Part shown: piece after piece, positions 2,397-62,148 of the stretch
How positions within the stretch are numbered: position 1 is the first letter of the stretch
Layout: every line of letters begins with the position of its first letter
From: a virus
Lineage: Duplodnaviria > Heunggongvirae > Uroviricota > Caudoviricetes
Reading direction: 5' to 3' (one strand)
Virus record (IMG/VR): IMGVR_UViG_2579778606_000002
Coordinates: 27,981 to 91,980 of that record
Length of the DNA: 64,000 nt
Position numbers and translations under genes: made by a program
Notes under the pieces: generated by a model
Database searches by the model: none
Seen by the model: only the letters and a program-made list of their open reading frames with translations
What the model was told of the DNA's origin: nothing

Positions 2397-3359
2397 TCAT
2401 CCCCGAAAGCCCTCCGGAATTGACCAGTCTTCCCGGTCAAATTCAGACCGATAGCCACGCTGTTTCATCAGGTCAAAGGCTTCACCAATGGTTGCACACC
2501 CCTGGGAGCCAGAATAATCCATTGAGAAATCCAGGGCACTGGATTGTTTAGGCTTATTCACTGCTGTAGCGGCACTACGTATCCATGCAAATTTTTTTGC
2601 CAGCTTTTCAGCGGTACGATACAGAGCCTGCCGTTTTGCGTGCCCCTCATCTGAACGACGCTTTGCAGCTCTCGCTTTTGCCGCCGCCAGGCAGTGGTTG
2701 GTATGTTCTTCCCTGATTACTGGTTTTTTATCCAGACCCCCATTATCCGCTTGAGAACTATCTGCTGGTGAAGCCTTTGGCTGAACCGCGCATGATCTTT
2801 CTCTTCTTTTGGCTATAGAGTGACTCTTATTTTCTATTGGCTGTTCATTTTGAACATGGGGGGACTTGTTCAATTTGAACAGGGGGTTCCCAGTTTCAAA
2901 AAAATAACGAACCTTTGAAATCAACTGCTTAACCAGTTTTGTGGCGTTGGCAAATTTGATGCCCTGCTTACTCCCTATCTCCATTGCTACATGAATGAAG
3001 TGGAGAAATTGTGTTGTAAACCGGTACACGTTACACACCTGAGCATTGTTATTCGCTACCTGATGCTGCTTAACAAGCATTCCGCACTTCGTCGCTTCGG
3101 CAAATGCCCGGCGCACAGTAGAAATACTGCGTCCTGTAATCTCGGACATATCCGCATATGAGCGACGGATCATGTATTCATCGGTAGCTCCTGCCAGGTT
3201 GGCGAACTCGGCAATAATGGCGCTATGTGAAGGGGAAAGAAAACCGCTATGACGAGCAAAAAAACTCAACTGATGACCTTTGATTTTTTTGTGGTATTCA
3301 GTGTTGTTTTTATACTCAGAAGTGTTGAAAGTAACTGAAACTGAATTTAAAATACTCAC
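2397..3359 (-). CDS. Hypothetical protein with predicted HTH (ITGRSISTVRRAFAEATKCGML); possible replication or regulatory protein
   Basis: 320-aa ORF (GTG start in track) flanked by operator-like palindromes; no confident family assignment. Confidence 0.5.
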   Translation of the reverse strand: MSILNSVSVTFNTSEYKNNTEYHKKIKGHQLSFFARHSGFLSPSHSAIIAEFANLAGATDEYMIRRSYADMSEITGRSISTVRRAFAEATKCGMLVKQHQVANNNAQVCNVYRFTTQFLHFIHVAMEIGSKQGIKFANATKLVKQLISKVRYFFETGNPLFKLNKSPHVQNEQPIENKSHSIAKRRERSCAVQPKASPADSSQADNGGLDKKPVIREEHTNHCLAAAKARAAKRRSDEGHAKRQALYRTAEKLAKKFAWIRSAATAVNKPKQSSALDFSMDYSGSQGCATIGEAFDLMKQRGYRSEFDREDWSIPEGFRG

Positions 3360-3530: not shown

Positions 3531-3562
3531 GTGTTAGAAAATTAAGCTAGCTTTTAGCTCAC
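3531..3562. promoter_or_regulatory. Operator-like half-site GTGTTAGAAAA plus degenerate second arm
   Basis: Same half-site as the 32-bp palindromes; overlaps 3' end of 3559..4557 and lies upstream of 2397..3359. Confidence 0.35.
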
Positions 3563-6256: not shown

Positions 6257-6439
6257 GAGTCACCGCGAAATGTTTTCAGTTTGCGGCAGCATAGTCAGTA
6301 TGTGATTTTTGATGATGGATCTTTTCAACTAGAAATATTGGCTGGCCCCTCTCGTAACAAAGTGAAGAATAAAACTTGAATATGCACATTGTGCGTATTA
6401 AGATTAAAAAAGTTGACCACTTTGCTGCGGAGAAATTCC

Positions 6440-27416: not shown

Positions 27417-27524
27417 CAACATTGACTATGTGCGATTTAATGTTGACTATGTGCGATTTAATATTGACTGTACGCGATTTAATGTTGACTATATGCGATA
27501 TAAACATTGACTGTATGCGATAAT
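27417..27524. repeat. Origin iterons: five direct 21-bp repeats (consensus TGTTGACTATGTGCGATTTAA)
   Basis: Five contiguous direct repeats seen immediately upstream of repA, like P1 oriR/incC. Confidence 0.8.
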
Positions 27525-27601: not shown

Positions 27602-28486
27602 ATGGTAGATGACAAAAAAGGCTTTCTGAATGTTGAGGAAATATCAGGGAATACCGGAGAAATCCACAGCTTAAAGCCTAACAATAATAGTACTATTCAG
27701 CCGATAGCTTTGTTGCGGCTTGGGGTGTTTGTTCCCACATTGAAATCTACCAGTGTTGCTTTACGTCGCAAGAACGCCGGTTTAACTAACTCCACTGATG
27801 CGACAGAAGAGCTGTCCAGCCTGAAGATTGTAGAGCAGGAAGGGTATCAGGGTATTGAGATTCATGGTCCACGCCTGGATATGGATACTGATTTTAAGGT
27901 GTGGATAGGCATTACATCTGCATTGTTTGACTATAAACCAGATAATGATGGTGTGATCACCCTGACATTCTCTGAATTTGTGGATCGTTGCGGTTATCCA
28001 AGGAAGCGGCTGTCCAAGGCTTTTCGCAAGAGCATTGGCGACTCTCTAACGCGTATTCAGCAGACGTTGCTGAAGTTCAACTTGCCCACCAGCAAAGAAC
28101 ATGTTCGTTATATCCAGATGAATTTATTGGCATTTAGTGAACTTGATACTGAAAATGACATTATAAGAATCCAACCGCAGAAGCAGTTGTCTGAGTTGTA
28201 CTACGTTGACTATAAGCGAATATTGAAGCTCAAAATGCTCGATAAACTTGGCAGGAAAGAGACAGCCAAGGTGCTTTATACGTTTTTCGAAGCGTTACCT
28301 TCAAACCCTGCGCCAGTGAGTATTGAGCGCCTTCGTGCCAGATTGAACCTCAAGTCCTCGGTTAGCGTTCAGAACAGTGTGATTCGTAAAGCCATGAAAG
28401 ACTTAGAAGCTGTTGAATATCTTAAATTTTCAGAGATAAAGAATGGTCGGAAAATAGGTTTCCAGATCCATAAACGAAATCCATAA
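27602..28486 (+). CDS. repA: Plasmid replication initiator RepA (P1 RepA-like)
   Basis: 294-aa ORF with AAGGA RBS; segments QPIALLRLGVFVP and FFEALPSNPAPVSIERLRARL recall P1 RepA; iterons on both sides. Confidence 0.8.
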   Translation: MVDDKKGFLNVEEISGNTGEIHSLKPNNNSTIQPIALLRLGVFVPTLKSTSVALRRKNAGLTNSTDATEELSSLKIVEQEGYQGIEIHGPRLDMDTDFKVWIGITSALFDYKPDNDGVITLTFSEFVDRCGYPRKRLSKAFRKSIGDSLTRIQQTLLKFNLPTSKEHVRYIQMNLLAFSELDTENDIIRIQPQKQLSELYYVDYKRILKLKMLDKLGRKETAKVLYTFFEALPSNPAPVSIERLRARLNLKSSVSVQNSVIRKAMKDLEAVEYLKFSEIKNGRKIGFQIHKRNP

Positions 28487-28715
28487 CGTTGACTGTGTGC
28501 GATTCTAAGCGTTGACTATACGCGACAAACATTGGCGCAGGCGGATTTAGTTATTAGCTTTTTCACATGATCAATGGATAAACCAGCTATTTTATTGAGT
28601 ATTTGTCGCTTATAGTCAATCTTTTCTCATTTCTTGTCGCGTGTAGTCAATGTTTTGTGATCGGGATCGAGTACAGTCAACATTAGTTGTAGGCCATTTC
28701 GCCTATAGTCAACAT
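28487..28715. repeat. Downstream iteron array (incA-like copy-control repeats, both orientations)
   Basis: Two direct copies (CGTTGACTGTGTGCGAT, GTTGACTATACGCGA) then four or more inverted copies (..TATAGTCAAT). Confidence 0.7.
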
Positions 28716-29008
28716 TTCTCCATCAGCAGTCTTAAGGGCAATTCTTACATCATTAGTTAGTTGGTTGGATCTTTAACGGCTAACATTATTTGTAATTTAT
28801 TGATTAATAAGGAATGTGTAAAAATCAACCTCAGATGGCATCGTATGCTATAGCTATTTTTATAGCACTACTGTTGAATGTTTTATGGTTGTAACGCGTT
28901 GATTTTGTTGTGATGTGTAAAAAATGCCATCATTGACGTAAACAGCAGGTGTAGATATTGCCCTCAAGTTTGCCCCTTCCCCACCTTCTCGCACTTTAAT
29001 ACTACATT

Positions 29009-36097: not shown

Positions 36098-36176
36098 GGT
36101 TAAACCCTAAATTCGGGCGCGGCGTGAAGATTCTTTTGACGAGGTGACAATACTCACTTTGTTATTTAGTCAATAG

Positions 36177-36255
36177 CATTAGAAAAATAATTTTCGTTAA
36201 CAATCTTGTGTTAGTATGGTCTAATCTTAATTTTCTAACACAAAACATTAGAACA
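36177..36255. promoter_or_regulatory. Cluster of operator-like half-sites and a 34-bp palindrome (GTGTTAGTAT..TTTTCTAACAC)
   Basis: Several TTAGAAAA/TTTTCTAACA motifs in the divergent region between capsid gene and ORF 36257. Confidence 0.45.
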
Positions 36256-36256
36256 A

Positions 36257-36649
36257 ATGGCGTACAAGATCTTCGTTTCATACAAAAATGGTGCTAAAAG
36301 CCATTCTCTGAATACAAGCAGCAGATGCCTTGTAGAAGCTCAACTGTCATCAATCCTTACTGAAAGAGACATTCTTTCCCTGGCTGAACGAATCGTGATT
36401 CTCCATTCAGGAAAGGCTATTCTTAATGTTCCCGCGCTTACCCCGCCTTCTGACGTTTTGGCATCTGTTAAGTGGCCTCAAATTGGCACGCCTGTAAGAG
36501 TGGAAGATCCTGTAACGACCACTCTTTATATGCCGAAGTCAGTAAGGGATTGGCTTGCTGCGGTTGGTAATGGGAAGGTCAGCGCGGGGCTTCGGAAGCT
36601 GGTTGAAATGGCTGATATTCCGGAGCTGAAAAATGCATGGAGACAGTGA
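36257..36649 (+). CDS. Hypothetical protein, possible small regulator
   Basis: 130-aa ORF with ATG directly downstream of operator cluster. Confidence 0.45.
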   Translation: MAYKIFVSYKNGAKSHSLNTSSRCLVEAQLSSILTERDILSLAERIVILHSGKAILNVPALTPPSDVLASVKWPQIGTPVRVEDPVTTTLYMPKSVRDWLAAVGNGKVSAGLRKLVEMADIPELKNAWRQ

Positions 36650-38939: not shown

Positions 38940-39120
38940 ACTTCTCACATTTGTCTCTGATTTGTCTCAAACAGGTGTCGTGGGTACATCATGTATCATC
39001 TAAGTCTCTTTTGTGTCTCTCTTACGTCTCTAGTTTGATGCTTTTTACGCTATCTAACTTCTGGTCTTATTTTGTTTTCTCATATAAAATTCAATTCTTT
39101 CTCAAATGTGTCTCAGAAGT
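38940..39120. repeat. parC-like centromere region with multiple (T)GTCTC iterons
   Basis: Six or more short GTCTC-containing repeats upstream of the ParM-like gene. Confidence 0.4.
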
Positions 39121-44286: not shown

Positions 44287-44299
44287 TTTTAGCAAAACT

Positions 44300-44331
44300 A
44301 TGTTAGAAAACAAAACTCAATTATCTAACAC
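44300..44331. promoter_or_regulatory. 32-bp operator-like palindrome (ATGTTAGAAAAC..TATCTAACAC)
   Basis: Same inverted-repeat family, about 14 nt upstream of the rdgC start. Confidence 0.5.
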
Positions 44332-44345
44332 AGTTTTGCATTTTG

Positions 44346-48250: not shown

Positions 48251-48253
48251 CAA

Positions 48254-48273
48254 AGCCCACCTTAAGGTGGGCT
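48254..48273. terminator. Terminator-like hairpin (AGCCCACC-ttaa-GGTGGGCT)
   Basis: Perfect 8-bp stem 4 nt after the stop at 48250; U-rich flank stronger on the minus strand. Confidence 0.45.
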
Positions 48274-48475
48274 TCGCCAGAAATTATTTTCTGGTATTCA
48301 GAACGCCATTACCGGACTTTGCCTTGACCAAGTATCACAACTGGTTTGACCTGTTATGATAGCTGGTTGCGGGATGTCTGAATTTCTTCAGTCTGCTGCA
48401 TCCTCGAAGGTTTGGTTCAACATGTACCATTCCTTCACTGTCATAATAGTGTACTATTCATGTCCTTGCAAACAC

Positions 48476-50003: not shown

Positions 50004-50334
50004 AACAGTTCCTCACAGTCATAACCTGGGGGGAACTGTATGCAGGGTGTGAAATGCGAGAAACAGACAGTCCACCAGTTCAGGGGGATGTGGTTCATAA
50101 ATCCCCTCACTGGTGACAAGTGACTTTCATTAATCTTTATGCGGGGGCCAGCTTCATTGTTTGCTGGCTGTAGATTAAAAATTAAATAGTGTGAATGACA
50201 TGGACGTTATTCTCGAATTGTTAAAGCTAATTGTTCTGTTTATGAACGCCTCGTTGACCACGCAAATACTGGCGTTAGTATTTTTGTTACTCTTCTACCT
50301 GGTATTAAGGGAGTTAACTAAGCTACTGAGTTGA

Positions 50335-51039: not shown

Positions 51040-51253
51040 GCTTTGGCGTTATGACTCCCTACCGCGCATCGGCTGAAAGTTAGTCGTCAAAAGAACCTTC
51101 AACGGGAGCCGTTTGCGCAATGGATTTTGTCCAGATTGTGATTTCCAGAATAGTGTCAACAATTTTTTTGATTTTTTTATTCGCGCTGAATTTGGCCTAA
51201 GTCATTTTGGCGTAGACGTTTGTTTTTGTAACATAAAACTTCAGTTTGTTTAC

Positions 51254-53647: not shown

Positions 53648-54589
53648 TTAACTAACAATCCAGTCGGTTGCTGCTATATCTTCTGGCTGCAAATCAATCG
53701 CACAGATCTTACCGTCGCGAATGGTGCGCCAGTTTTTCCGTGAGCCTCTTTCGGGCCATACCCAGACACTTTCAGGCCAGGATGCTCGACGGCATACGGT
53801 TGCATACCCTGTTTTAATCTTCTCTCTGGCGGTATGCAACGACAGGTTTGCCTTTGGGCTATCAGGCACAGGGTGGTGAATGGCCTGAAACAGCCCCATC
53901 CTGGGGTGATACCAGCGTTTGTTGCGTGGTTCTGCCTCCGACATCACCTGCTTAAAGGCTTTCCGGAAGGGGGCCAGGGCCACAATTGAGCGTCGCGCAA
54001 GCAAACCGTCGGGAGTCAAAAACTCATGCGTATCAGTGGGTATCCGGTAAGCGTTAACCAGGTTGCGACATTTGGCTTCAGTCAGGCCACATTTCGCCGC
54101 CAGCTGGCGGTAGCCAATGTAGCCTTCCGGAATATTGCCTTTCTTTATTTGCTCGAGTGTTTCAGCGACCATCGATACTTGTGCTGATACCTCGGCTACC
54201 TGGGCATTTACGGCGTTGATCCGGCGTTCATGCTCAAGATGCATTTGCGCCATTTCAGCCAGGATTTCGGCTTTTGATTTTAACTGTACCCGGGCATTCT
54301 CCAGTTCGCGCCAGCGGTCCACCAGCCGGGCGGTGAATTCCGGAGAGAGCTGCGCGACGACAATGATGCTGTCTCGTTTTCCTTGTTCGCCTTCAAATAT
54401 GTAAGCCTTGGAAAATCGACGAGGGCCAACTGATTGTTTATTTTCAATTTCCACAGATTGTGGAAATTGGATCACACTCTTTTTAGCCAGTGTTTCGATA
54501 GTTCTCTTCACACTATCTTGGCGACTTCCTACCAGTTCCGCGATCTCAATGCTGGTCATTGTCGCTTTTTGAGAGATGGACAGATTCAT
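53648..54589 (-). CDS. Rha-family phage regulatory protein (antirepressor-like), intact paralog
   Basis: 313-aa ORF; N-terminal Phage_pRha-type segment nearly identical to copy 1. Confidence 0.7.
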   Translation of the reverse strand: MNLSISQKATMTSIEIAELVGSRQDSVKRTIETLAKKSVIQFPQSVEIENKQSVGPRRFSKAYIFEGEQGKRDSIIVVAQLSPEFTARLVDRWRELENARVQLKSKAEILAEMAQMHLEHERRINAVNAQVAEVSAQVSMVAETLEQIKKGNIPEGYIGYRQLAAKCGLTEAKCRNLVNAYRIPTDTHEFLTPDGLLARRSIVALAPFRKAFKQVMSEAEPRNKRWYHPRMGLFQAIHHPVPDSPKANLSLHTAREKIKTGYATVCRRASWPESVWVWPERGSRKNWRTIRDGKICAIDLQPEDIAATDWIVS

Positions 54590-54804
54590 CAGTGCACCTC
54601 CACGCAGTTCATTGGCAGATTCCAGTAATTGAGGATCTCCATCGCATCAAGAGTGAAGCGTGCGGCAAAAATGCAGGGTTCTTCAGGAAGGTATGAACGA
54701 GCTTCTGCTTCGGTTGCAGCCATGACGCAGATATACAGGTGTTTTTGGCAGGAATAGAAACGCCAGATAAATTCAGAATGAGTTGGGGTAGGGATAGTAG
54801 CCAT
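54589..54804 (-). CDS. icd: Icd-like small protein, copy 2
   Basis: 71-aa ORF with GGAGG RBS; 1-nt stop/start overlap with Rha gene; EFIWRF and EAEARS motifs shared with copy 1. Confidence 0.45.
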   Translation of the reverse strand: MATIPTPTHSEFIWRFYSCQKHLYICVMAATEAEARSYLPEEPCIFAARFTLDAMEILNYWNLPMNCVEVH

Positions 54805-54839
54805 ATTGGCAGCCTCCTTTTGCTAATTTAAGGAGCTAC

Positions 54840-55050
54840 CGCGTGAGGTTCCAATCTCAATGGCGGTAGCACTGACTGGGTTGGAACTACCGGCGCAAAA
54901 GGGAACCGGCCTGCCTTTCGGCAGCCCAGCCAGCACTACCATTGATCTCTGAGCTAAACGCTACGTATGGCTGTGCGATGGCATGACACAAGAAAAGACG
55001 CTTTCGGCGTCTGTGTCGCCTTTTGCATTATCCGGGGTTCCAATCCCGGC
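54840..55050 (-). ncRNA. Candidate c4-like antisense RNA / control region of icd-rha copy 2
   Basis: Direct boxes GGTTCCAATC at 54847 and 55036 with inverted copy GGTTGGAAC at 54879, about 45 nt upstream of icd start. Confidence 0.25.
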
Positions 55051-55117
55051 ACCCGTTTTTCTAAGGTGCCGTAGAAATATACCCCACGATAATGCCAGGG
55101 CGCAACTGTGTGTTTTC

Positions 55118-55285
55118 TTATGCTTTTCTTTTCTTCTTTTGGGCTTGCTTGCAAGCGTAGGCCATTGCTTTAGCTTTCACTTCATCCAGCTTCCCGGTGA
55201 TCACTTCTTTTCCAAGAGTGACAAACCAATCATAGCAACCGCCAGTGATGTTCTGGATTTGAAAGTTGAGGTAGCGAACGGTCAT
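55118..55285 (-). CDS. Small basic hypothetical protein (55 aa), not in ORF track
   Basis: ATG at 55283-55285 preceded by GGGGGTG RBS; encodes MTVRYLNFQIQNITGGCYDWFVTLGKEVITGKLDEVKAKAMAYACKQAQKKKRKA. Confidence 0.35.
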   Translation of the reverse strand: MTVRYLNFQIQNITGGCYDWFVTLGKEVITGKLDEVKAKAMAYACKQAQKKKRKA

Positions 55286-55605
55286 TTTGACACCCCCAGC
55301 GCGAGTAAAGAATGCAGATTATCGCGTGAGTGGCGGACAACGAGTGATGGGAAAAGACAGTAGCTGTTCATAGTGTAGTGACTCCTTGCTTTCGGAGCCG
55401 CCATCGACTGTTCCACGGTCTGGTGGCGGCGCAATAAAGGCTGGAACACCGTGAGTCAACGGGGGCTTTTCAGCCACCTATATTGCACCGCCATTGGTAT
55501 GGCGGCGGCAATCATACGAAAAACCAAACGGTTTGTCTCAAAAAGTTGACCGGTGTACCAATCGGTTGTGAATGTACAACGGTGAATTTCACAATTCAAC
55601 TTAAA

Positions 55606-55637
55606 ATGTTAGAAAACTAATTTATTAATTCAGTCAC
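55606..55637. promoter_or_regulatory. Operator-like half-site ATGTTAGAAAA with degenerate partner
   Basis: Overlaps the ref stop codon; upstream of the small ORF and icd-rha copy 2. Confidence 0.35.
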
Positions 55638-56192
55638 CATCTGATACAACGTCATTTCATCAGCATTGTGCCGCCTGAAATCTGCTTTGCCGCCTATTTT
55701 TCCATCAGCATGAACAGGGACCAACCAGGGGTATTGCTCGCGTATCTCTGCTGGCGCTGCGTGTTGATGGTGCCATTTACACAAAGGGAGAACGTATTTA
55801 TGCGCGTTCTCTGCCGTTCTCCCGAAGATGTGGTGCAGGGATACCACAGGGCTATGCTGTCCGTGCATATGGCAGGCAATGCAGGGGAGAGCACCGATGG
55901 TAGTTTGTATCCGGCGCTCATCTGCTGTGAGTGTTCTGCCTTTCAGGCCGCGTGACGCGCGAGTTTTTTTGACAGGAGCAGAAGCGGCCTTCTCTTTTCT
56001 TCGCTGTTCATATTGCTTCGCTTTTTCAATTTTCTTTTGCCGATATTCAGGCGATGCGGCTTTTTCTCGCGCACGCTGCTGCTGGCGTTGAGCTTGCTGA
56101 AGACGCTTTGCCCTTTGTTCCTCCCGCCATTTCGGATCAGCCAGTTTTTTCAGGGCTTTTTGCGTCTGTTTCTCCCAATAGCTTTGCTTCAT
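55617..56192 (-). CDS. ref: Ref-like recombination-enhancement nuclease (HNH-type core, basic N-terminus)
   Basis: Lys/Arg/Gln-rich N-terminus then LPCIACHMHGQH..HHIFGRTAENAHKYVLPLCKWHH; ATG at 56192 (track start is upstream TTG). Confidence 0.55.
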   Translation of the reverse strand: MKQSYWEKQTQKALKKLADPKWREEQRAKRLQQAQRQQQRAREKAASPEYRQKKIEKAKQYEQRRKEKAASAPVKKTRASRGLKGRTLTADERRIQTTIGALPCIACHMHGQHSPVVSLHHIFGRTAENAHKYVLPLCKWHHQHAAPAEIREQYPWLVPVHADGKIGGKADFRRHNADEMTLYQMVTELIN

Positions 56193-56236
56193 AGAAATAC
56201 CCGGTTTGTCTACATCACCGCTATGGTTGATCAAAT

Positions 56237-56268
56237 GTGTTAGAAAATCAAAATTGATTTTCTAACAC
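56237..56268. promoter_or_regulatory. Near-perfect 32-bp palindrome GTGTTAGAAAATCAA-AA-TTGATTTTCTAACAC (operator candidate)
   Basis: 15-bp arms fully complementary; between divergent ref and the early operon. Confidence 0.6.
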
Positions 56269-56308
56269 AAAATGAAGATACTTTTTTCGGACGCTATATC
56301 AGGAGGTC

Positions 56309-56464
56309 ATGATGCTTGTCGCAATAAGTGCAATCCACCAGCAATCCGGTACAGAAATTGGGTTGCTATATGCCCTGTTTTTCACTGTCCTGGCGTTGTT
56401 TGAGCTGGGTATTGAACTCTTTGCTCTCATTAACTTTTGCGTAACGTTCCTGGGGAAACTTTGA
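56309..56464 (+). CDS. Small hydrophobic membrane peptide (51 aa), not in ORF track
   Basis: AGGAGG RBS then ATG at 56309; MMLVAISAIHQQSGTEIGLLYALFFTVLALFELGIELFALINFCVTFLGKL; stop overlaps next ATG (TGATG). Confidence 0.4.
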   Translation: MMLVAISAIHQQSGTEIGLLYALFFTVLALFELGIELFALINFCVTFLGKL

Positions 56465-57075
56465 TGGCTATACGCATTATGAAAATTTACATCGCGGGTC
56501 CGATGACTGGTTATCCCGACTACAACCGCACAGCGTTTTTTTCGAAAGCAAAAGAGCTGATGGAGGCAGGGCATATTGTTCTGAATCCGGCGCTGTTACC
56601 TGCTGGCCTCTGCCAGAGCGAATACATGGATATTTGCCTTGCTATGGTGCGTTCGGCTAATGCGGTCTATTTGCTCAAGGGGTGGGAGGAATCAGTTGGC
56701 GCTCGTGCAGAGCACGAGCTGGCTCAAAAGCTGGGGCTGAATGTAATTTATGAGTCACCAACCAACATTGAATGCCAGGTTGCTCCGCATATTTACCGGG
56801 AACTGGTCAATGCACTGCGTGATATCGCTGCTGTATATCACGGCACAGAACAGCTTCGTGAGCGTTTAGCCCATACCATTTCCTATTACCTGTCTTTATC
56901 TCATGAGCACAAGCTCCGCCAGAAGGTAATGATCAAATTTATCATGAGGTTATCGAAATCCCTGGCAAACGCCGATCCAAAGAATCCATTACCGAAAGAG
57001 GCAATGAATTACCTGAAGTCCTGCAACGTTGTTTCTGAAGATGGCGTTCTTTTGGTTAGAAGGAGTTCTGCGTGA
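56464..57075 (+). CDS. DUF4406-like (nucleoside 2-deoxyribosyltransferase-like) protein
   Basis: MKIYIAGPMTGYPDYNRTAFF..GHIVLNP motif; track ORF starts at upstream TTG 56437. Confidence 0.6.
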   Translation: MAIRIMKIYIAGPMTGYPDYNRTAFFSKAKELMEAGHIVLNPALLPAGLCQSEYMDICLAMVRSANAVYLLKGWEESVGARAEHELAQKLGLNVIYESPTNIECQVAPHIYRELVNALRDIAAVYHGTEQLRERLAHTISYYLSLSHEHKLRQKVMIKFIMRLSKSLANADPKNPLPKEAMNYLKSCNVVSEDGVLLVRRSSA

Positions 57076-57389
57076 GCTGGCGGGGATGGGGAAGGGCAGA
57101 AATCATGATACTCCGCCAGTGCGCCGGGACTATGACAGTCGAGAGTATTGGGAGGCTGATCGGGCGTACCGGTAGTGCTGTCAGAACCAAAGCGCGGCAA
57201 CTGCGGATCTGCATGATTCTGAAAGGAGACTTTCACCCGTCAGCCAAATACCGGCAGGGCGATATAGAACTGGCACGGCAGCTTCATCGGTGTGGTGTTC
57301 CCCGCCGTGAGATCGCAGAAAAACTCGAAATGCCCCTGGGCATGATTAATCAGTACGTTTATTTCGAAAGGAGAGTGTATGAAGTCTGA
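57072..57389 (+). CDS. Hypothetical small protein (possible HTH)
   Basis: 105-aa ORF, GTG start with AGGAG RBS, GTGA overlap with upstream stop. Confidence 0.45.
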
Positions 57390-57741
57390 AGGTTTAACGC
57401 CCGCACAACTGGCAGAGCGTAACGCTGAATTACTCAGGATTACCCAGGAAAAAGCCTTCCACATACTCGAACGATTAGAGACGCTCTCTACGGAGGAGGA
57501 GATATCCCCGGAGATGCTGGTCGAGTGCAGCCGTGTGATATTGCGTCGCAAGAACGACATCGCGCGGCTGACATCTGGCGCACCATCCGTATCAGCCAGT
57601 CCAACGCTTTATTGCAGCTTCTGTAACAAATCCCAGCACACCGTTAAAAAGTTAATTGCCGGGGACAACGTTTTCATCTGCAACGAGTGCGTGAAAGATT
57701 GCAACAACATTATCCAGGAAGAGCAAAGGGAATCAGCATGA
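57379..57741 (+). CDS. Small protein with C-terminal ClpX-type C4 zinc-finger domain
   Basis: [39 protein letters not shown] is about 70% identical to the E. coli ClpX N-terminal zinc-binding domain. Confidence 0.7.
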
Positions 57742-58385
57742 AATTTTCCAAATTTTCTGAGTTGGTGAATCGTATTTTGTCCAACAACCACAGCCATCGT
57801 CGCGATATGGATGTAACAATCGTTGTTCATTCGCCTGGCAGCATTGGTTCAACACCTTCAGTTGAGGTTCAGTCAATTCACGCTGGTTTTGATTGGGATT
57901 CCGGGAAAGTGCTTATTTTCCCATCACAGCCACTGACCACGCTAACACCAGAACAGATTACTGATATCACTGATAGTGTGCGCAAAGGTCAGTCTTGGCA
58001 CGCATATCAGGAATACAAGAAGCATCAAGAGCAGTTGGAAAAATTGTCGATTGAACTGGATGCCGCAAAACAGCGCATTGCAGAGCTGGAGGGTAATCGC
58101 ACGGCGCTGGCAGTGGAGAATGAGCTGGCTCGTAAGGCAGTTCAGGCATTCTGCGATGTTGTTGGCGACAACACCGAGGTTATCGCTGAGGTGGTTGGGC
58201 GAGATGGCGTTCTGGTTATTTTGGAGGCCATGAAGGCAACAGGAAATATGCCAGCCACCGATGCTTTCCTGGCTGAAGTACGGGCGCAGGGCGTGGAGAT
58301 GTTTGCGGAGTGTGCATACACGCTTGAACATCATGATCACGCAGTAGCCTTCGCCGCTGAGCTTCGCAAAGGAGGCAACCAGTGA
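57737..58385 (+). CDS. Ea22-like family protein (paralog 1)
   Basis: Shares [15 protein letters not shown] and [10 protein letters not shown]-terminal segments with paralogs; ATGA overlap with upstream gene. Confidence 0.55.
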
Positions 58386-58969
58386 GCAAGATTGACTATC
58401 AAGAACTGCGCGAGGCGGCGGAACAGGCAACGCAAGATGAATGGGTAGCATATATTTTGCCGGGTCATAACGGCATTTATCCTGCGCGCACGTCTGAGGG
58501 TAGGCATTGCGGATACTTTATTGACTGGCCTGGCGTCTGTCAGGGGCGGGAGAGCATCAGCATCAGAACCTACGCAGTGAATTGCAATGACGCATGGCTA
58601 AACACCGAAGGTGATGACATCTCCGGCTCATACGTTAAGTACAAAGACCATCAGGAAGTGGTTGCCGCTCTTGAGGCCAAGTGCGCGGCGCTGGCAGTGG
58701 AGAATGCGGCGCTTAAACAGTCGGAGAAGGAATTTAATAACTTCTGTCGTCAGGAGTACTACGGTTGGGAGGACAACTTCACGGAAACCCCAGCTACCGA
58801 CGCTCTCCTGGCTGAAGTACGTGCGCAGGGGGTGGATATGGCTCGTAACGCGATGATTGATTTTGTTGATGGTGAAGTTGGGCCAAACAAGAACGTTCCG
58901 GGGCTGATTAGAGGCGCAGAGATATGCGTAAGTATTGCTGAACAGCTTCGCAAAGGAGGCAGCCAGTGA
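58382..58969 (+). CDS. Ea22-like family protein (paralog 2)
   Basis: N-terminus [14 protein letters not shown] and C-terminus [24 protein letters not shown] shared with paralogs. Confidence 0.55.
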   Translation: MSKIDYQELREAAEQATQDEWVAYILPGHNGIYPARTSEGRHCGYFIDWPGVCQGRESISIRTYAVNCNDAWLNTEGDDISGSYVKYKDHQEVVAALEAKCAALAVENAALKQSEKEFNNFCRQEYYGWEDNFTETPATDALLAEVRAQGVDMARNAMIDFVDGEVGPNKNVPGLIRGAEICVSIAEQLRKGGSQ

Positions 58970-59241
58970 ATATCGACACGACAATAACGATCGATACGCT
59001 CCTAAATACCGGTCTGGCACTTCTCGGTTGGCTTTACATCATGTCCCGTACATGGCGATGGCTGGGTTCCATTTTCCTGAAACAGTGGAAAAAACGGCGC
59101 AAACAGGAACTACGCCAGAAGGCATTAGAAGCGTTCTATGACGCATTTGAGCTTAGCCGCATTGAACCAGGTACAACAGCCAGGATAGCGACAAAAGGCG
59201 ACCTGATGATAGTGATGTTCAGACAGGAGAAAACAAAATGA
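58966..59241 (+). CDS. Small membrane protein
   Basis: 91-aa ORF with one TM helix (LLNTGLALLGWLYIM). Confidence 0.4.
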   Translation: MNIDTTITIDTLLNTGLALLGWLYIMSRTWRWLGSIFLKQWKKRRKQELRQKALEAFYDAFELSRIEPGTTARIATKGDLMIVMFRQEKTK

Positions 59242-59462
59242 CAGAACAGACGATGACAAATCGCGAACTTGTTGATGCCGCGATTGAACTTGCTGGCGAT
59301 TTTTATTCCATGTTGGGTTACGAGCATCGACCTGGTTTTAAGTATTGGGAGTCACCGCATCCGCAAGAACAACAGGTGTTTGAAATGGCCTGCCGTGCTT
59401 TTGAGGTTATTCGCGGTTCTGATGTGATGGAGGCCGTTGCCGACTTGGAGGATGAAGAGTGA
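59238..59462 (+). CDS. Small acidic hypothetical protein
   Basis: 74-aa ORF, overlapping start/stop with neighbours. Confidence 0.4.
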   Translation: MTEQTMTNRELVDAAIELAGDFYSMLGYEHRPGFKYWESPHPQEQQVFEMACRAFEVIRGSDVMEAVADLEDEE

Positions 59463-59770
59463 GCATCATTAAAGAAATGCCGGTAGAACGTGATGAATAT
59501 GGCTGCTGGACACATCCGGAGTATGAAAAGTTTTGCGCAGGTCGTGAATATATATCCACTGAGGAATTTGACGCCTGGATGAAGGAAAATAATCTTCAGT
59601 GGACTATTCGCAGTATGGATGAAGATCATTTTAATCTGGACGCAGATGGTCCCGATATTGCCGCCTGGGAACCAGAGCGACCAGAGGGCGAAGGATGGTT
59701 TGTTGGCTCTATTCATGACACTGAAGATGGCCCGGTTTGTATCTGGCTGCGGGAGAAGGTTGCCGCATGA
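59459..59770 (+). CDS. Hypothetical protein
   Basis: 103-aa ORF in the overlapping early operon. Confidence 0.4.
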
Positions 59771-60453
59771 CCCAGGCGCTGCATGAAGTGAATTTATATA
59801 GCCGTATTGATGGTTCAGGCTACAGAAACATATGGGTTGTTGGTGATCTGCATGGTTGCTACACCAGATTGATGTCTGAACTTCATCGTGTGGACTTTGA
59901 CCCGACACAGGATTTACTGATATCGGTTGGCGACCTTATCGATCGCGGCACCGAAAATGTTGAATGCCTGGAGCTATTGCAGATGCCCTGGTTTCGGTCG
60001 GTTATGGGAAACCACGAGCGATTAATGATCGATGCGTTAAGCCCCGCAGGCAACGTGAATAACTGGCTAATGAATGGCGGCCAATGGTTCTTCATGCTGG
60101 ACGCTGATCGGGAAATATTAGCCAGGGCGCTGGTGGAGCTGGTAAGACGTTTACCCTATATCATTGAGTTGAACACCGGGCATGAAACTATCGTTATAGC
60201 CCATGCCGACTATCCTGATAACGAATACCAGTTTGGTAAACCTGTTAGCGATCTCAATGTTACCTGGCGGCGTGAGCGATTTTATGACGCGGTTGATGGT
60301 GTTGGTGGAATGATCACTGGTGCAGATAGCTTTATTTTCGGGCATACGCCAGTAAACAGCCCGAAATCTTTCTGGAACCAGCACTACATAGACACTGGCG
60401 CGGTTTTTTGCGGAAATCTGACGCTAAAGCAGGTGAAGGGAGGCCAGCCGTAA
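59767..60453 (+). CDS. Ser/Thr protein phosphatase (lambda PPase-like metallophosphoesterase)
   Basis: GDLHG, GDLIDRG and GNHE motifs; alignable to lambda phosphatase along its length; ATG at 59767. Confidence 0.8.
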
Positions 60454-60484
60454 TCCTGAACACATCGTTTATGCACTCAAAACC

Positions 60485-60516
60485 GTGTTAGAATATTGAT
60501 TTTAATTTTCTAACAT
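60485..60516. promoter_or_regulatory. 32-bp operator-like palindrome (GTGTTAGAAT..TTTTCTAACAT)
   Basis: Same inverted-repeat family, about 40 nt upstream of gene 60558. Confidence 0.5.
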
Positions 60517-60557
60517 ATTATTTTACCGCTCGGAACAAAACAGAGTCGGTATACATT

Positions 60558-61553
60558 ATGAGTGCAATAATCACACCTCATTTCGTAAACGGAGCTGGTG
60601 TGGCTGTCTTTCCGGTAGACAAGCCCACCAGCAACTACATTGGCGCAGGTCGCCGTTTCATTATCTCTCCACTTCCGCGCGAACAGGCTGAAAACACGCC
60701 AGATGGCGTAGTGGATCTGAACTATTCGCTGGTTGCCAACCAGTCTCTGAAAGCATTTTTTCAAAGCGAGCGCGTATTTAACGCATTAGGCGGTGAAGAT
60801 TCGCTTGTTCATTGGGTAAGTTCCAATATCCACGATTGCCAGGCGCACGATAAGCGCGATTGCAGCCACCAGCTAACCACTCATTTCTATAACGGCTCTG
60901 CCGTTCGCCTGTGCTGGAAACATGATGCGGAATACATGATGAAGGGGTACGGCAAGCTGGATGACCAGTTATCCCTGAATCGTGCCAACTGGGTTATGAA
61001 CTGGGCTGCGAGCGAGTTAAAACTACCGCCAGAACGCGATCTGAGCATGGTTGAACTCACTTTTTGGGCCATTCGCCGGAATCTGAAAGACGAGCTGCCA
61101 GATGAAGCCGGTCGCATTGCATTTTGTCAGCCAAAACAGGAAATCCCTACCGGCACACTGAAAGAATCGGATATCACCTGGGAGCACAGCACCCGTGAGC
61201 TGGTGGACATAACCGCAGAGCAGATCGTCAACCTGTCTGTAGATGAGGATTCCGGCCTGCTGTATATGCGCCGACCAAAAGCGGTTCTCGGTAAAAGCCC
61301 GGCTTATCTCCGGTTTGTGATTTCTCGTCCGTGCATCGGATGCGGAGGCAAAGTTAATCACCCGTTCATGTACCGCGCCCGCTCGTTAAACGAACACGAT
61401 CGCTGGGCCGTTCCTCTTTGCGATGAATGCGCCAGAAGCGCAGAAAACGATGTCCGGGCATGGGAAAAAGCACATGGCATACGCCTTTACGTAGCCGCCA
61501 ACCAGCTTTTCGACTTCGCCATCGAGCGCGGAGTGATCACGTTCAATAACTGA
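60558..61553 (+). CDS. DUF968-like protein with C-terminal Ref-like Zn/HNH-type motif
   Basis: C-terminus RPCIGCGG..HPFMYRARSLNEHDRWAVPLCDEC parallels the Ref core (PCIxC..VPLC). Confidence 0.5.
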   Translation: MSAIITPHFVNGAGVAVFPVDKPTSNYIGAGRRFIISPLPREQAENTPDGVVDLNYSLVANQSLKAFFQSERVFNALGGEDSLVHWVSSNIHDCQAHDKRDCSHQLTTHFYNGSAVRLCWKHDAEYMMKGYGKLDDQLSLNRANWVMNWAASELKLPPERDLSMVELTFWAIRRNLKDELPDEAGRIAFCQPKQEIPTGTLKESDITWEHSTRELVDITAEQIVNLSVDEDSGLLYMRRPKAVLGKSPAYLRFVISRPCIGCGGKVNHPFMYRARSLNEHDRWAVPLCDECARSAENDVRAWEKAHGIRLYVAANQLFDFAIERGVITFNN

Positions 61554-61569
61554 TGGAGTGGATCAAAAA

Positions 61570-62148
61570 ATGAAAGAACGCGGGATGATTTTTAACGATG
61601 AGATGGTCCGGGCAATTCTTGGCGGGAATAAAACACAGACTCGCAGGATTGTTGAAGAAAAATTCTATGGACGAGCAGTTGCCGCAGAGTTGCTTGCCAA
61701 GCATTGTCCATATGGTCAACCGGGCGATCGTATTTGGGTTCGCGAAACCTACCGGGTACATGGCAAAGCGACGGACGTCGCAACGCTGGTTTATCGCGCA
61801 AGCGTGCGTAACTCCTGGACAGAACAAACGCACCGGGTTCCGGTCGATGTTTGTAATAAACCAGTATCAGAAAAGTGGACGCCATCAATTCACATGCCGC
61901 GCTGGGCATCGCGCATTCTTCTGGAAATTACCGACGTGCGTGTGGAACGGCTGCATGACATGAGCGAGGCAGATGCTAAAGCAGAAGGCGCAACTCCGGC
62001 GACGTACAAGATTACGCCACCTGAAGCTGTTTATCGCGTTGGTTTTGGTGATATCTGGCGCAGTATTTACGGGCAGGATAACTGGCTATCTAACCCGTGG
62101 GTATGGGTAATCGAGTTTAAGCGTATTCAGGGGGCAACCAGTGAGTGA
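61570..62148 (+). CDS. ASCH-domain-like protein
   Basis: MIFNDEMVRAILGGNKTQTRR (GxK..R motif); ATG at 61570 with GGAG RBS (track start is upstream GTG 61558). Confidence 0.5.
   Translation: MKERGMIFNDEMVRAILGGNKTQTRRIVEEKFYGRAVAAELLAKHCPYGQPGDRIWVRETYRVHGKATDVATLVYRASVRNSWTEQTHRVPVDVCNKPVSEKWTPSIHMPRWASRILLEITDVRVERLHDMSEADAKAEGATPATYKITPPEAVYRVGFGDIWRSIYGQDNWLSNPWVWVIEFKRIQGATSE

Follow-up and report, generated by a model that had tools for sequence, protein, structure and literature searches.

The palindrome that recurs ahead of early operons in this phage DNA is very probably the operator set of a D6-type master repressor of the C1 family. This repressor would be encoded outside the window (the whole stretch of 64,000 nucleotides analyzed here) and would act by occluding promoters. 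The first-pass annotation had read the palindrome as the likely operator set of an immunity repressor, and every element of this reading that can be tested in silico supports it. From the arrangement of sites, genes, and promoter-like hexamers we infer that C1 is the binder, that the promoters are real, and that occlusion is the mechanism. The recognition sequence would add a new specificity to a type of control system already known from phages.

Origin of the Window

By megablast, positions 54000-62000 match Escherichia phage D6 (NC_050154 / MF356679), which is annotated as a relative of P1, at ~92% identity, and also many ~90 kb plasmids from E. coli, Salmonella, and Shigella at up to 97-98%. 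The window is collinear with D6 positions 19,282-83,605 at 72-92% identity. These matches and this collinearity identify the window as part of a D6-like, P1-related plasmid prophage, a kind of element exemplified by pYU39_89. It is a mosaic variant relative to D6. A search for an identical replicon among complete E. coli genomes found none; the closest plasmids in these genomes match 85-90% of the queried 24 kb (window positions 40000-64000) at ~98% identity. Plasmid prophages of the D6-like type occur commonly in E. coli, Salmonella, and Shigella, and 149 plasmids in PLSDB carry a D6-type C1.

The early operon between two of the palindromes described below (56300-60450) is highly mosaic among relatives (loci L036-L062). 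It measures 1.3-5.3 kb and contains ead/Ea22, DUF4752, and other lambdoid-like genes in these relatives; the predicted operators on both ends are kept.

Sequence and Distribution of the Motif

The recurring palindrome reported by the first-pass annotation is genuine. Its perfect copy, GTGTTAGAAAATCAA-AA-TTGATTTTCTAACAC, occupies positions 56237-56268, and near-copies with 11-nt arms and a 10-nt spacer lie at 2309-2340, 44300-44331, and 60485-60516, with additional half-sites elsewhere. Allowing <=1 mismatch, the 11-mer matches 14 times in the window versus 1.49 times expected, and none of 100 shuffles reaches 14; the 30-nt dyad pattern matches four times versus zero expected. All eight exact copies of the 10-mer TGTTAGAAAA in the whole window are non-coding and fall into seven intergenic regions, in a sequence that a rough ORF map divides into 90.9% coding and ~9.1% non-coding DNA.

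An unbiased k-mer search, in which the word shared by the largest number of intergenic segments ranks first, gave the same result. In the window this word is TGTTAGAAAA, with eight copies in 7 of 41 segments (null maximum 3). The same search of D6 returned TGTTAGAAA (11 copies in 11 segments), and P1, which served as positive control, returned ATTAGAGCA (11 copies in 9 segments), which forms the core of its annotated C1 operator.

The half-site unit is asymmetric, spans ~15 bp, and reads (G/A)TGTTAGAAAA(T/C)(T/C)(A/G)A. Inverted pairs of this unit occur at four loci (2309, 44300, 56237, and 60485), all with 20 bp between the half-site centers, and single strong half-sites occur at three (3531, 36231, and 55606). 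Positions 36208-36241 had been counted earlier as a full or near-full copy. The arm at 36231-36241 is indeed perfect, but the partner arm is degenerate (8/11) and the spacing is 12 nt; we therefore treat this locus as a single half-site. Further weak PWM matches at 39074-39084, 220-230, and 36176-36186 were not counted because they are either unconserved in D6 or within the null score range. The sites and their P1 counterparts are as follows.

56237-56268, unstranded: predicted paired operator, a perfect 15+2+15 palindrome at the junction of ref (minus) and the divergent early operon (plus; DUF4406 ... ppp); P1 counterparts Oref and Oppp
60485-60516, unstranded: predicted paired operator between ppp and the DUF968 (pdcB-like) gene, ahead of the DUF968 operon; no P1 counterpart assigned
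44300-44331, unstranded: predicted paired operator between baseplate gene 5 and hrdC(rdgC)-dam, in front of the genes for RdgC/HrdC and the Dam methylases, forming part of a longer inverted repeat (44293-44338); P1 counterpart Odmt (Op68)
2309-2340, unstranded: predicted paired operator, one arm of which is weak (2309-2319), ahead of a1b1-C4 RNA-icd-Rha/Ant and ~230 bp upstream of C4; P1 counterpart Oc4 (Op51)
3531-3541, plus: single strong half-site ahead of the repL homologue (2397-3359, minus); P1 counterpart OrepL (Op53)
36231-36241, minus: single strong half-site in the stretch divergent from the major capsid gene, with ORF 36257-36649 starting 16 bp downstream; degenerate partner at 36208-36218
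55606-55616, plus: single strong half-site adjoining the 3' end of ref, upstream of a second isrK-like/C4-icd-Rha/Ant module; P1 counterpart Omat
51223-51233, minus: weak candidate half-site between mat and a simB-like gene; its PWM score of 17.3 taken alone is within the null range

The weak candidate at 51223-51233 is conserved in relatives and, at the orthologous position (72197-72216), in D6.

Two statements about the neighboring genes were revised. The gene at 2397-3359, listed previously as an HTH gene, encodes a homologue of the lytic-replication protein RepL (29% identity to P1 RepL, E 2e-28). The claim that copies stand before non-structural genes only is largely correct, in that the sites are intergenic and ahead of early or non-structural operons, but 36208-36241 also fronts the major capsid gene across a divergent region. 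Structural operons are preceded by a different, late-promoter-like motif. Two of the sites precede modules that resemble P1 immI, in each of which the C4 RNA is followed by icd and a gene for a Rha-type antirepressor.

2028-2113, minus: C4 antisense RNA belonging to the first immI-like module; the 2309-2340 site lies upstream of it (Rfam RF01695, 70 bits; RF03163, 53.9 bits)
2182-2234: a1b1 target of the first C4 RNA
54859-54946, minus: C4 antisense RNA belonging to the second immI-like module; the 55606 half-site lies upstream of it (Rfam RF01695, 76.7 bits)

In the second module (54859-55069), an isrK-like RNA (54991-55069) precedes the C4 RNA in place of an a1b1 target.

Comparison with P1, D6, and Lambdoid Phages

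The scatter of the sites mirrors that of the P1 C1 operators, as had been proposed on first inspection: the sites match Oc4, OrepL, Odmt, Oref, and Omat as annotated in the P1 record NC_005856. In P1 and P7, the C1 operators (immC; Op2, Op51, Op53, Op68, Op72, Op94, Op99, and others) are likewise scattered over a ~90 kb plasmid prophage, front the same genes (c4-icd-ant, repL, hrdC/dmt, ref, the 3' end of ref, lpa, and c1), and include both single and paired sites. P1 contains 22 dispersed operators with a 17-bp asymmetric consensus (PMC8546580). There, ref, ssb, dmt, kilA, and ban are under C1 control (PMC4713147), and C1 represses ref, dmt, kilA-repL, and lpa (PMC4713147, PMC8546580). The arrangement of pairs differs. 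Paired loci account for four of seven here versus 1 of 14 listed P1 operator loci, and the pairs here are 20 bp apart from center to center in opposite relative orientation, whereas P1 Obanab overlaps, with centers 11 bp apart.

Like lambdoid CI/Cro operators, the predicted ones are inverted-repeat sites that would overlap promoter elements and repress by occlusion. In contrast to lambdoid operators, which are grouped in two control regions and recognized by HTH dimers, the sites described here are dispersed over the genome, some are single half-sites, and the presumed repressor comes from an unrelated family.

Phage D6 carries the same motif at the same junctions, with 16 half-sites at ~13 loci. 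Beyond the span of the window, the D6 motif is also found 28 bp upstream of c1, in front of lpa, on the flanks of pmgS/pmgR, and immediately 3' of cre. Neither the GenBank nor the RefSeq record of D6 contains an operator annotation, and a full-text literature search for the motif, and for D6 together with C1 operators, returned nothing relevant; the sites may already be described in the literature on the D6 genome.

The motif persists in ~30 IMG/VR relatives and in D6 despite diverged flanks. In the c4, hrdC, and capsid-divergent regions, the window and D6 are 54-80% identical overall, and the arms are conserved; the capsid-divergent half-site (36231), for example, is kept in D6 at 54203-54222. 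Across 28 D6-cluster IMG/VR contigs, the early-operon-side arm and the dyad center of the ref/early palindrome are invariant, and the flanks fall into distinct lineages. The ref-side arm of this palindrome, which is perfect in the window, has decayed in some lineages including that of D6. The palindrome ahead of DUF968 (60485) is kept in nearly all 28 contigs at distances of 1.3 to 5.3 kb from ref, and in 27 relatives the half-site at the 3' end of ref lies between +568 and +574, counted from the start of ref.

A Probable C1-Family Repressor and Its Operator Types

The first-pass annotation had found no repressor gene in the window, and our search of the window for a C1 homologue was negative as well. 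Its suggestion to look for a C1-like repressor elsewhere was followed in relatives: a gene for such a protein (PHROG 1678) was present in all complete relatives examined, a few kilobases beyond the position of the right end of the window, with the same motif 28 bp upstream of the c1 start. By synteny with relatives that are 97-98% identical, the c1 gene of the present element should also lie a few kilobases past the right end. Scanning genome contigs with D6 C1 identified no relative.

In D6 this repressor is gene 1 (227-1264), annotated as "prophage repressor similar to P1 C1". It is 21% identical to P1 C1 over 240 residues (E 2e-8). PHROG 1678 matches D6 gene 1 with an E value of 3e-170, P1 C1 with 1e-139, and a homologue from Leclercia with 5e-74. 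P1 C1 lacks the last ~65 positions of this profile; the D6-type C1 is ~60 residues longer at the C-terminus. Searches of Pfam and PDB with C1 gave no match, and the family is without a Pfam model or a solved structure.

The operator sequence differs from that of P1, as the first reading had suspected. The P1 consensus ATTGCTCTAATAAATTT has no matches at <=3 mismatches in the window or in D6 versus 17 in P1, and the D6 PWM finds 16 half-sites in D6 and none in P1. The sole match to a P1-type operator in the window, at four mismatches, was rejected. The P1-like contig L063 (Ref 50% identical) carries P1 operators, and the D6-like loci L065 and L068 carry the D6 motif. Across C1 alleles that are 68-100% identical, the motif is kept 28 bp upstream of c1, with a slight variant (TGTTAGAAAT) in the 70% C1 group.

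A third clade of the P1/D6 group is represented by the Leclercia plasmid NZ_CP042508 (L067, L069), whose C1 homologue is 30% identical to D6 C1. Its top dispersed motif in the unbiased search is ATTCTAAGG, found at the ref/early, rdgC, capsid-divergent, cre-3', c1, and pmgS junctions. GTGATCA(C) repeats had been considered as the operator of this plasmid and were dropped because the search ranked ATTCTAAGG first at orthologous junctions. These GTGATCA repeats occur near c1 and parM, and 30 kb of the plasmid contain 12 Chi-like GCTGGTGGA copies. The P1, D6, and Leclercia motifs have a TCTAA core in common; aligned on this core, the P1 operator and the present motif agree at ~9/14 positions, a count made by eye and suggestive only.

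Operator types thus track the C1 clade. The same covariation holds with the rest of the genome, and hence it does not single out C1 as the binder. Another DNA-binding protein of the phage, such as a Rha/Ant-type protein, the HTH regulator by the toxin-antitoxin genes, or an unrecognised early regulator, could be the true ligand. Candidates exist, since the element encodes Rha domains with a winged helix and D6 a "transcriptional regulator" (orf72). Still, we consider such a protein an unlikely binder: the regulated set (c1, lpa, repL, c4-ant, ref, and dmt) equals the P1 C1 regulon gene for gene, and, unlike the motif and c1, which stay the same, the accessory regulators differ from one relative to another.

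If C1 is indeed the binder, the operator sequence would define the immunity group of D6-like prophages and would allow cross-repression between co-resident P1-like and D6-like elements to be predicted. It would also mark early promoters, which helps annotation and engineering. For a repressor family with unusual asymmetric recognition and no solved structure, it would provide a second operator specificity, or a third if Leclercia is included. The general picture of P1-type immunity is unchanged.

Candidate Promoters and Proposed Mechanism

The center of the paired sites contains a -35-like TTGA(T/G)T hexamer. In three paired sites, this central TTGAT(T/G) is followed, 16-17 bp downstream toward the regulated operon, by a -10-like hexamer. 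The resulting promoter candidates, listed below, are 8-9/12 consensus matches of a kind that is common in AT-rich DNA.

56254-56282, plus: candidate sigma-70 promoter of the early operon, TTGATT-17-GATACT (8/12 consensus match), with the -35 in the dyad center and the right arm filling the spacer
60496-60524: candidate promoter, TTGATT-17-TATTTT, by consensus match
2324-2297, minus: candidate promoter, TTGATG-16-TATGAT, by consensus match

At the distance that matches the 56254-56282 candidate, D6 keeps a -10-like TAATAT. The perfect copy at 56237-56268 contains two central TTGATT hexamers, which face ref and the early operon, respectively. The half-sites at 3531 and 55606 are located 7-20 bp upstream of a candidate -35, not over it, a placement that counts against the occlusion reading. 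P1 operators also overlap or abut -35 and -10 elements, as predicted here.

These positions suggest how repression may work. The conservation of single sites suggests that the half-site is the functional unit, which would be used alone at three loci or as an inverted pair at four. At paired sites one arm would fill the spacer between -35 and -10, and therefore a bound repressor would block RNA polymerase. In the lysogen, this would silence both c4-icd-antirepressor modules, repL, hrdC-dam, ref, the ppp-containing early operon, and the DUF968 operon.

The fixed center-to-center distance of 20 bp suggests that two protomers bind on one helix face. In the C1 family, to our knowledge, only asymmetric recognition by a monomeric repressor is known. 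A possible but rather doubtful extension of the C1 operator reading is that the D6-branch protein, with its ~60-residue C-terminal extension, binds as a dimer to the 32-bp dyad around the -35, and that the hrdC copy also forms a covarying stem-loop that separates late from early transcription. If true, this would represent a symmetric-operator mode in a family with asymmetric recognition.

Stem-Forming Potential and the hrdC Copy

Instead of binding a protein, the palindromes could act as nucleic acid hairpins and serve as terminators, cruciforms, or sites of RNA processing. The perfect and near-perfect copies do fold strongly as RNA (-18.8, -18.7, and -10 kcal/mol; z -6.8, -6.2, and -4.5), but the 2309 copy folds no better than shuffled sequence (z -0.9) and three loci consist of single half-sites. 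A terminator scan of the 55606, 56237, and 60485 regions called no terminator-like site; the stems are AT-rich, and in the sequence read the gene strand shows no T run after them. At divergent promoters the palindrome is situated upstream of the likely transcription start sites. Conservation argues in the same direction: the arms are conserved in sequence beyond complementarity and decay independently, as at the ref/early palindrome in the 28 contigs, where the partner of the decayed ref-side arm shows no compensating change. A hairpin function as the general explanation is therefore highly improbable.

Also in its favor is the hrdC copy, which is embedded in the inverted repeat 44293-44338. 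Its core arms are invariant across 15 distinct sequences, and the outer 5-6 pairs differ between lineages and stay complementary (CAAAAC/GTTTTG, CCATTT/AAATGG, CCAATT/AATTGG). Based on 3-4 independent lineages, 22 alignment cells are changed on both sides versus 6.9 +/- 1.9 in shuffles (0/500 reach 22), and the covariation score is 0.268 versus <=0.094 with the pairing slid. No T run follows this repeat. The covariation could reflect a stem-loop situated between hrdC-dam and the late baseplate genes, or homogenization of the arms by template switching, and it points to an added or different role at this locus.

Probable Late Promoters and Other Features

Recognition of the sites by a host factor, either a nucleoid protein or a global regulator, or a role as Lpa late-promoter boxes is very improbable. 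In favor of this reading, the sites are AT-rich and intergenic, and P1 ref is also bound by H-NS (PMC4713147). Against it, P1 and D6 have a common host and P1 contains no copy of the motif, which makes a host factor unlikely as the binder; the motif changes with the phage clade; and a separate motif, AAATCACAnACTnnnnTAnnCT, stands ahead of structural operons and never overlaps the palindromes. A search for a LexA box found none. The palindrome was also considered as a P1-type late promoter (AAGTGACTT followed by a -10) and rejected, since the P1 boxes differ from it.

The motif AAATCACAnACTnnnnTAnnCT is probably the D6-type late (Lpa-dependent) promoter, related in sequence to the P1 -22 box AAGTGACTT. 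Copies are found at 6301, 10420, 19777, and 27289 (minus) and at 284 (plus), ahead of the portal, darA-block, tail-fibre, pmgB/sit, and lysozyme-like operons. One exact P1-type late box is present at 50118-50136 (plus).

A strong Rfam match (113 bits) locates an sroH sRNA at 48252-48437 (minus), near a region that matches the toxin-antitoxin genes of D6. Iterons of the form TTGACT(A/G)T(A/G)(T/C)GCGAT occur in opposite orientations at 27430-27520 and 28483-28720, on both sides of the replication initiator gene (27602-28486).
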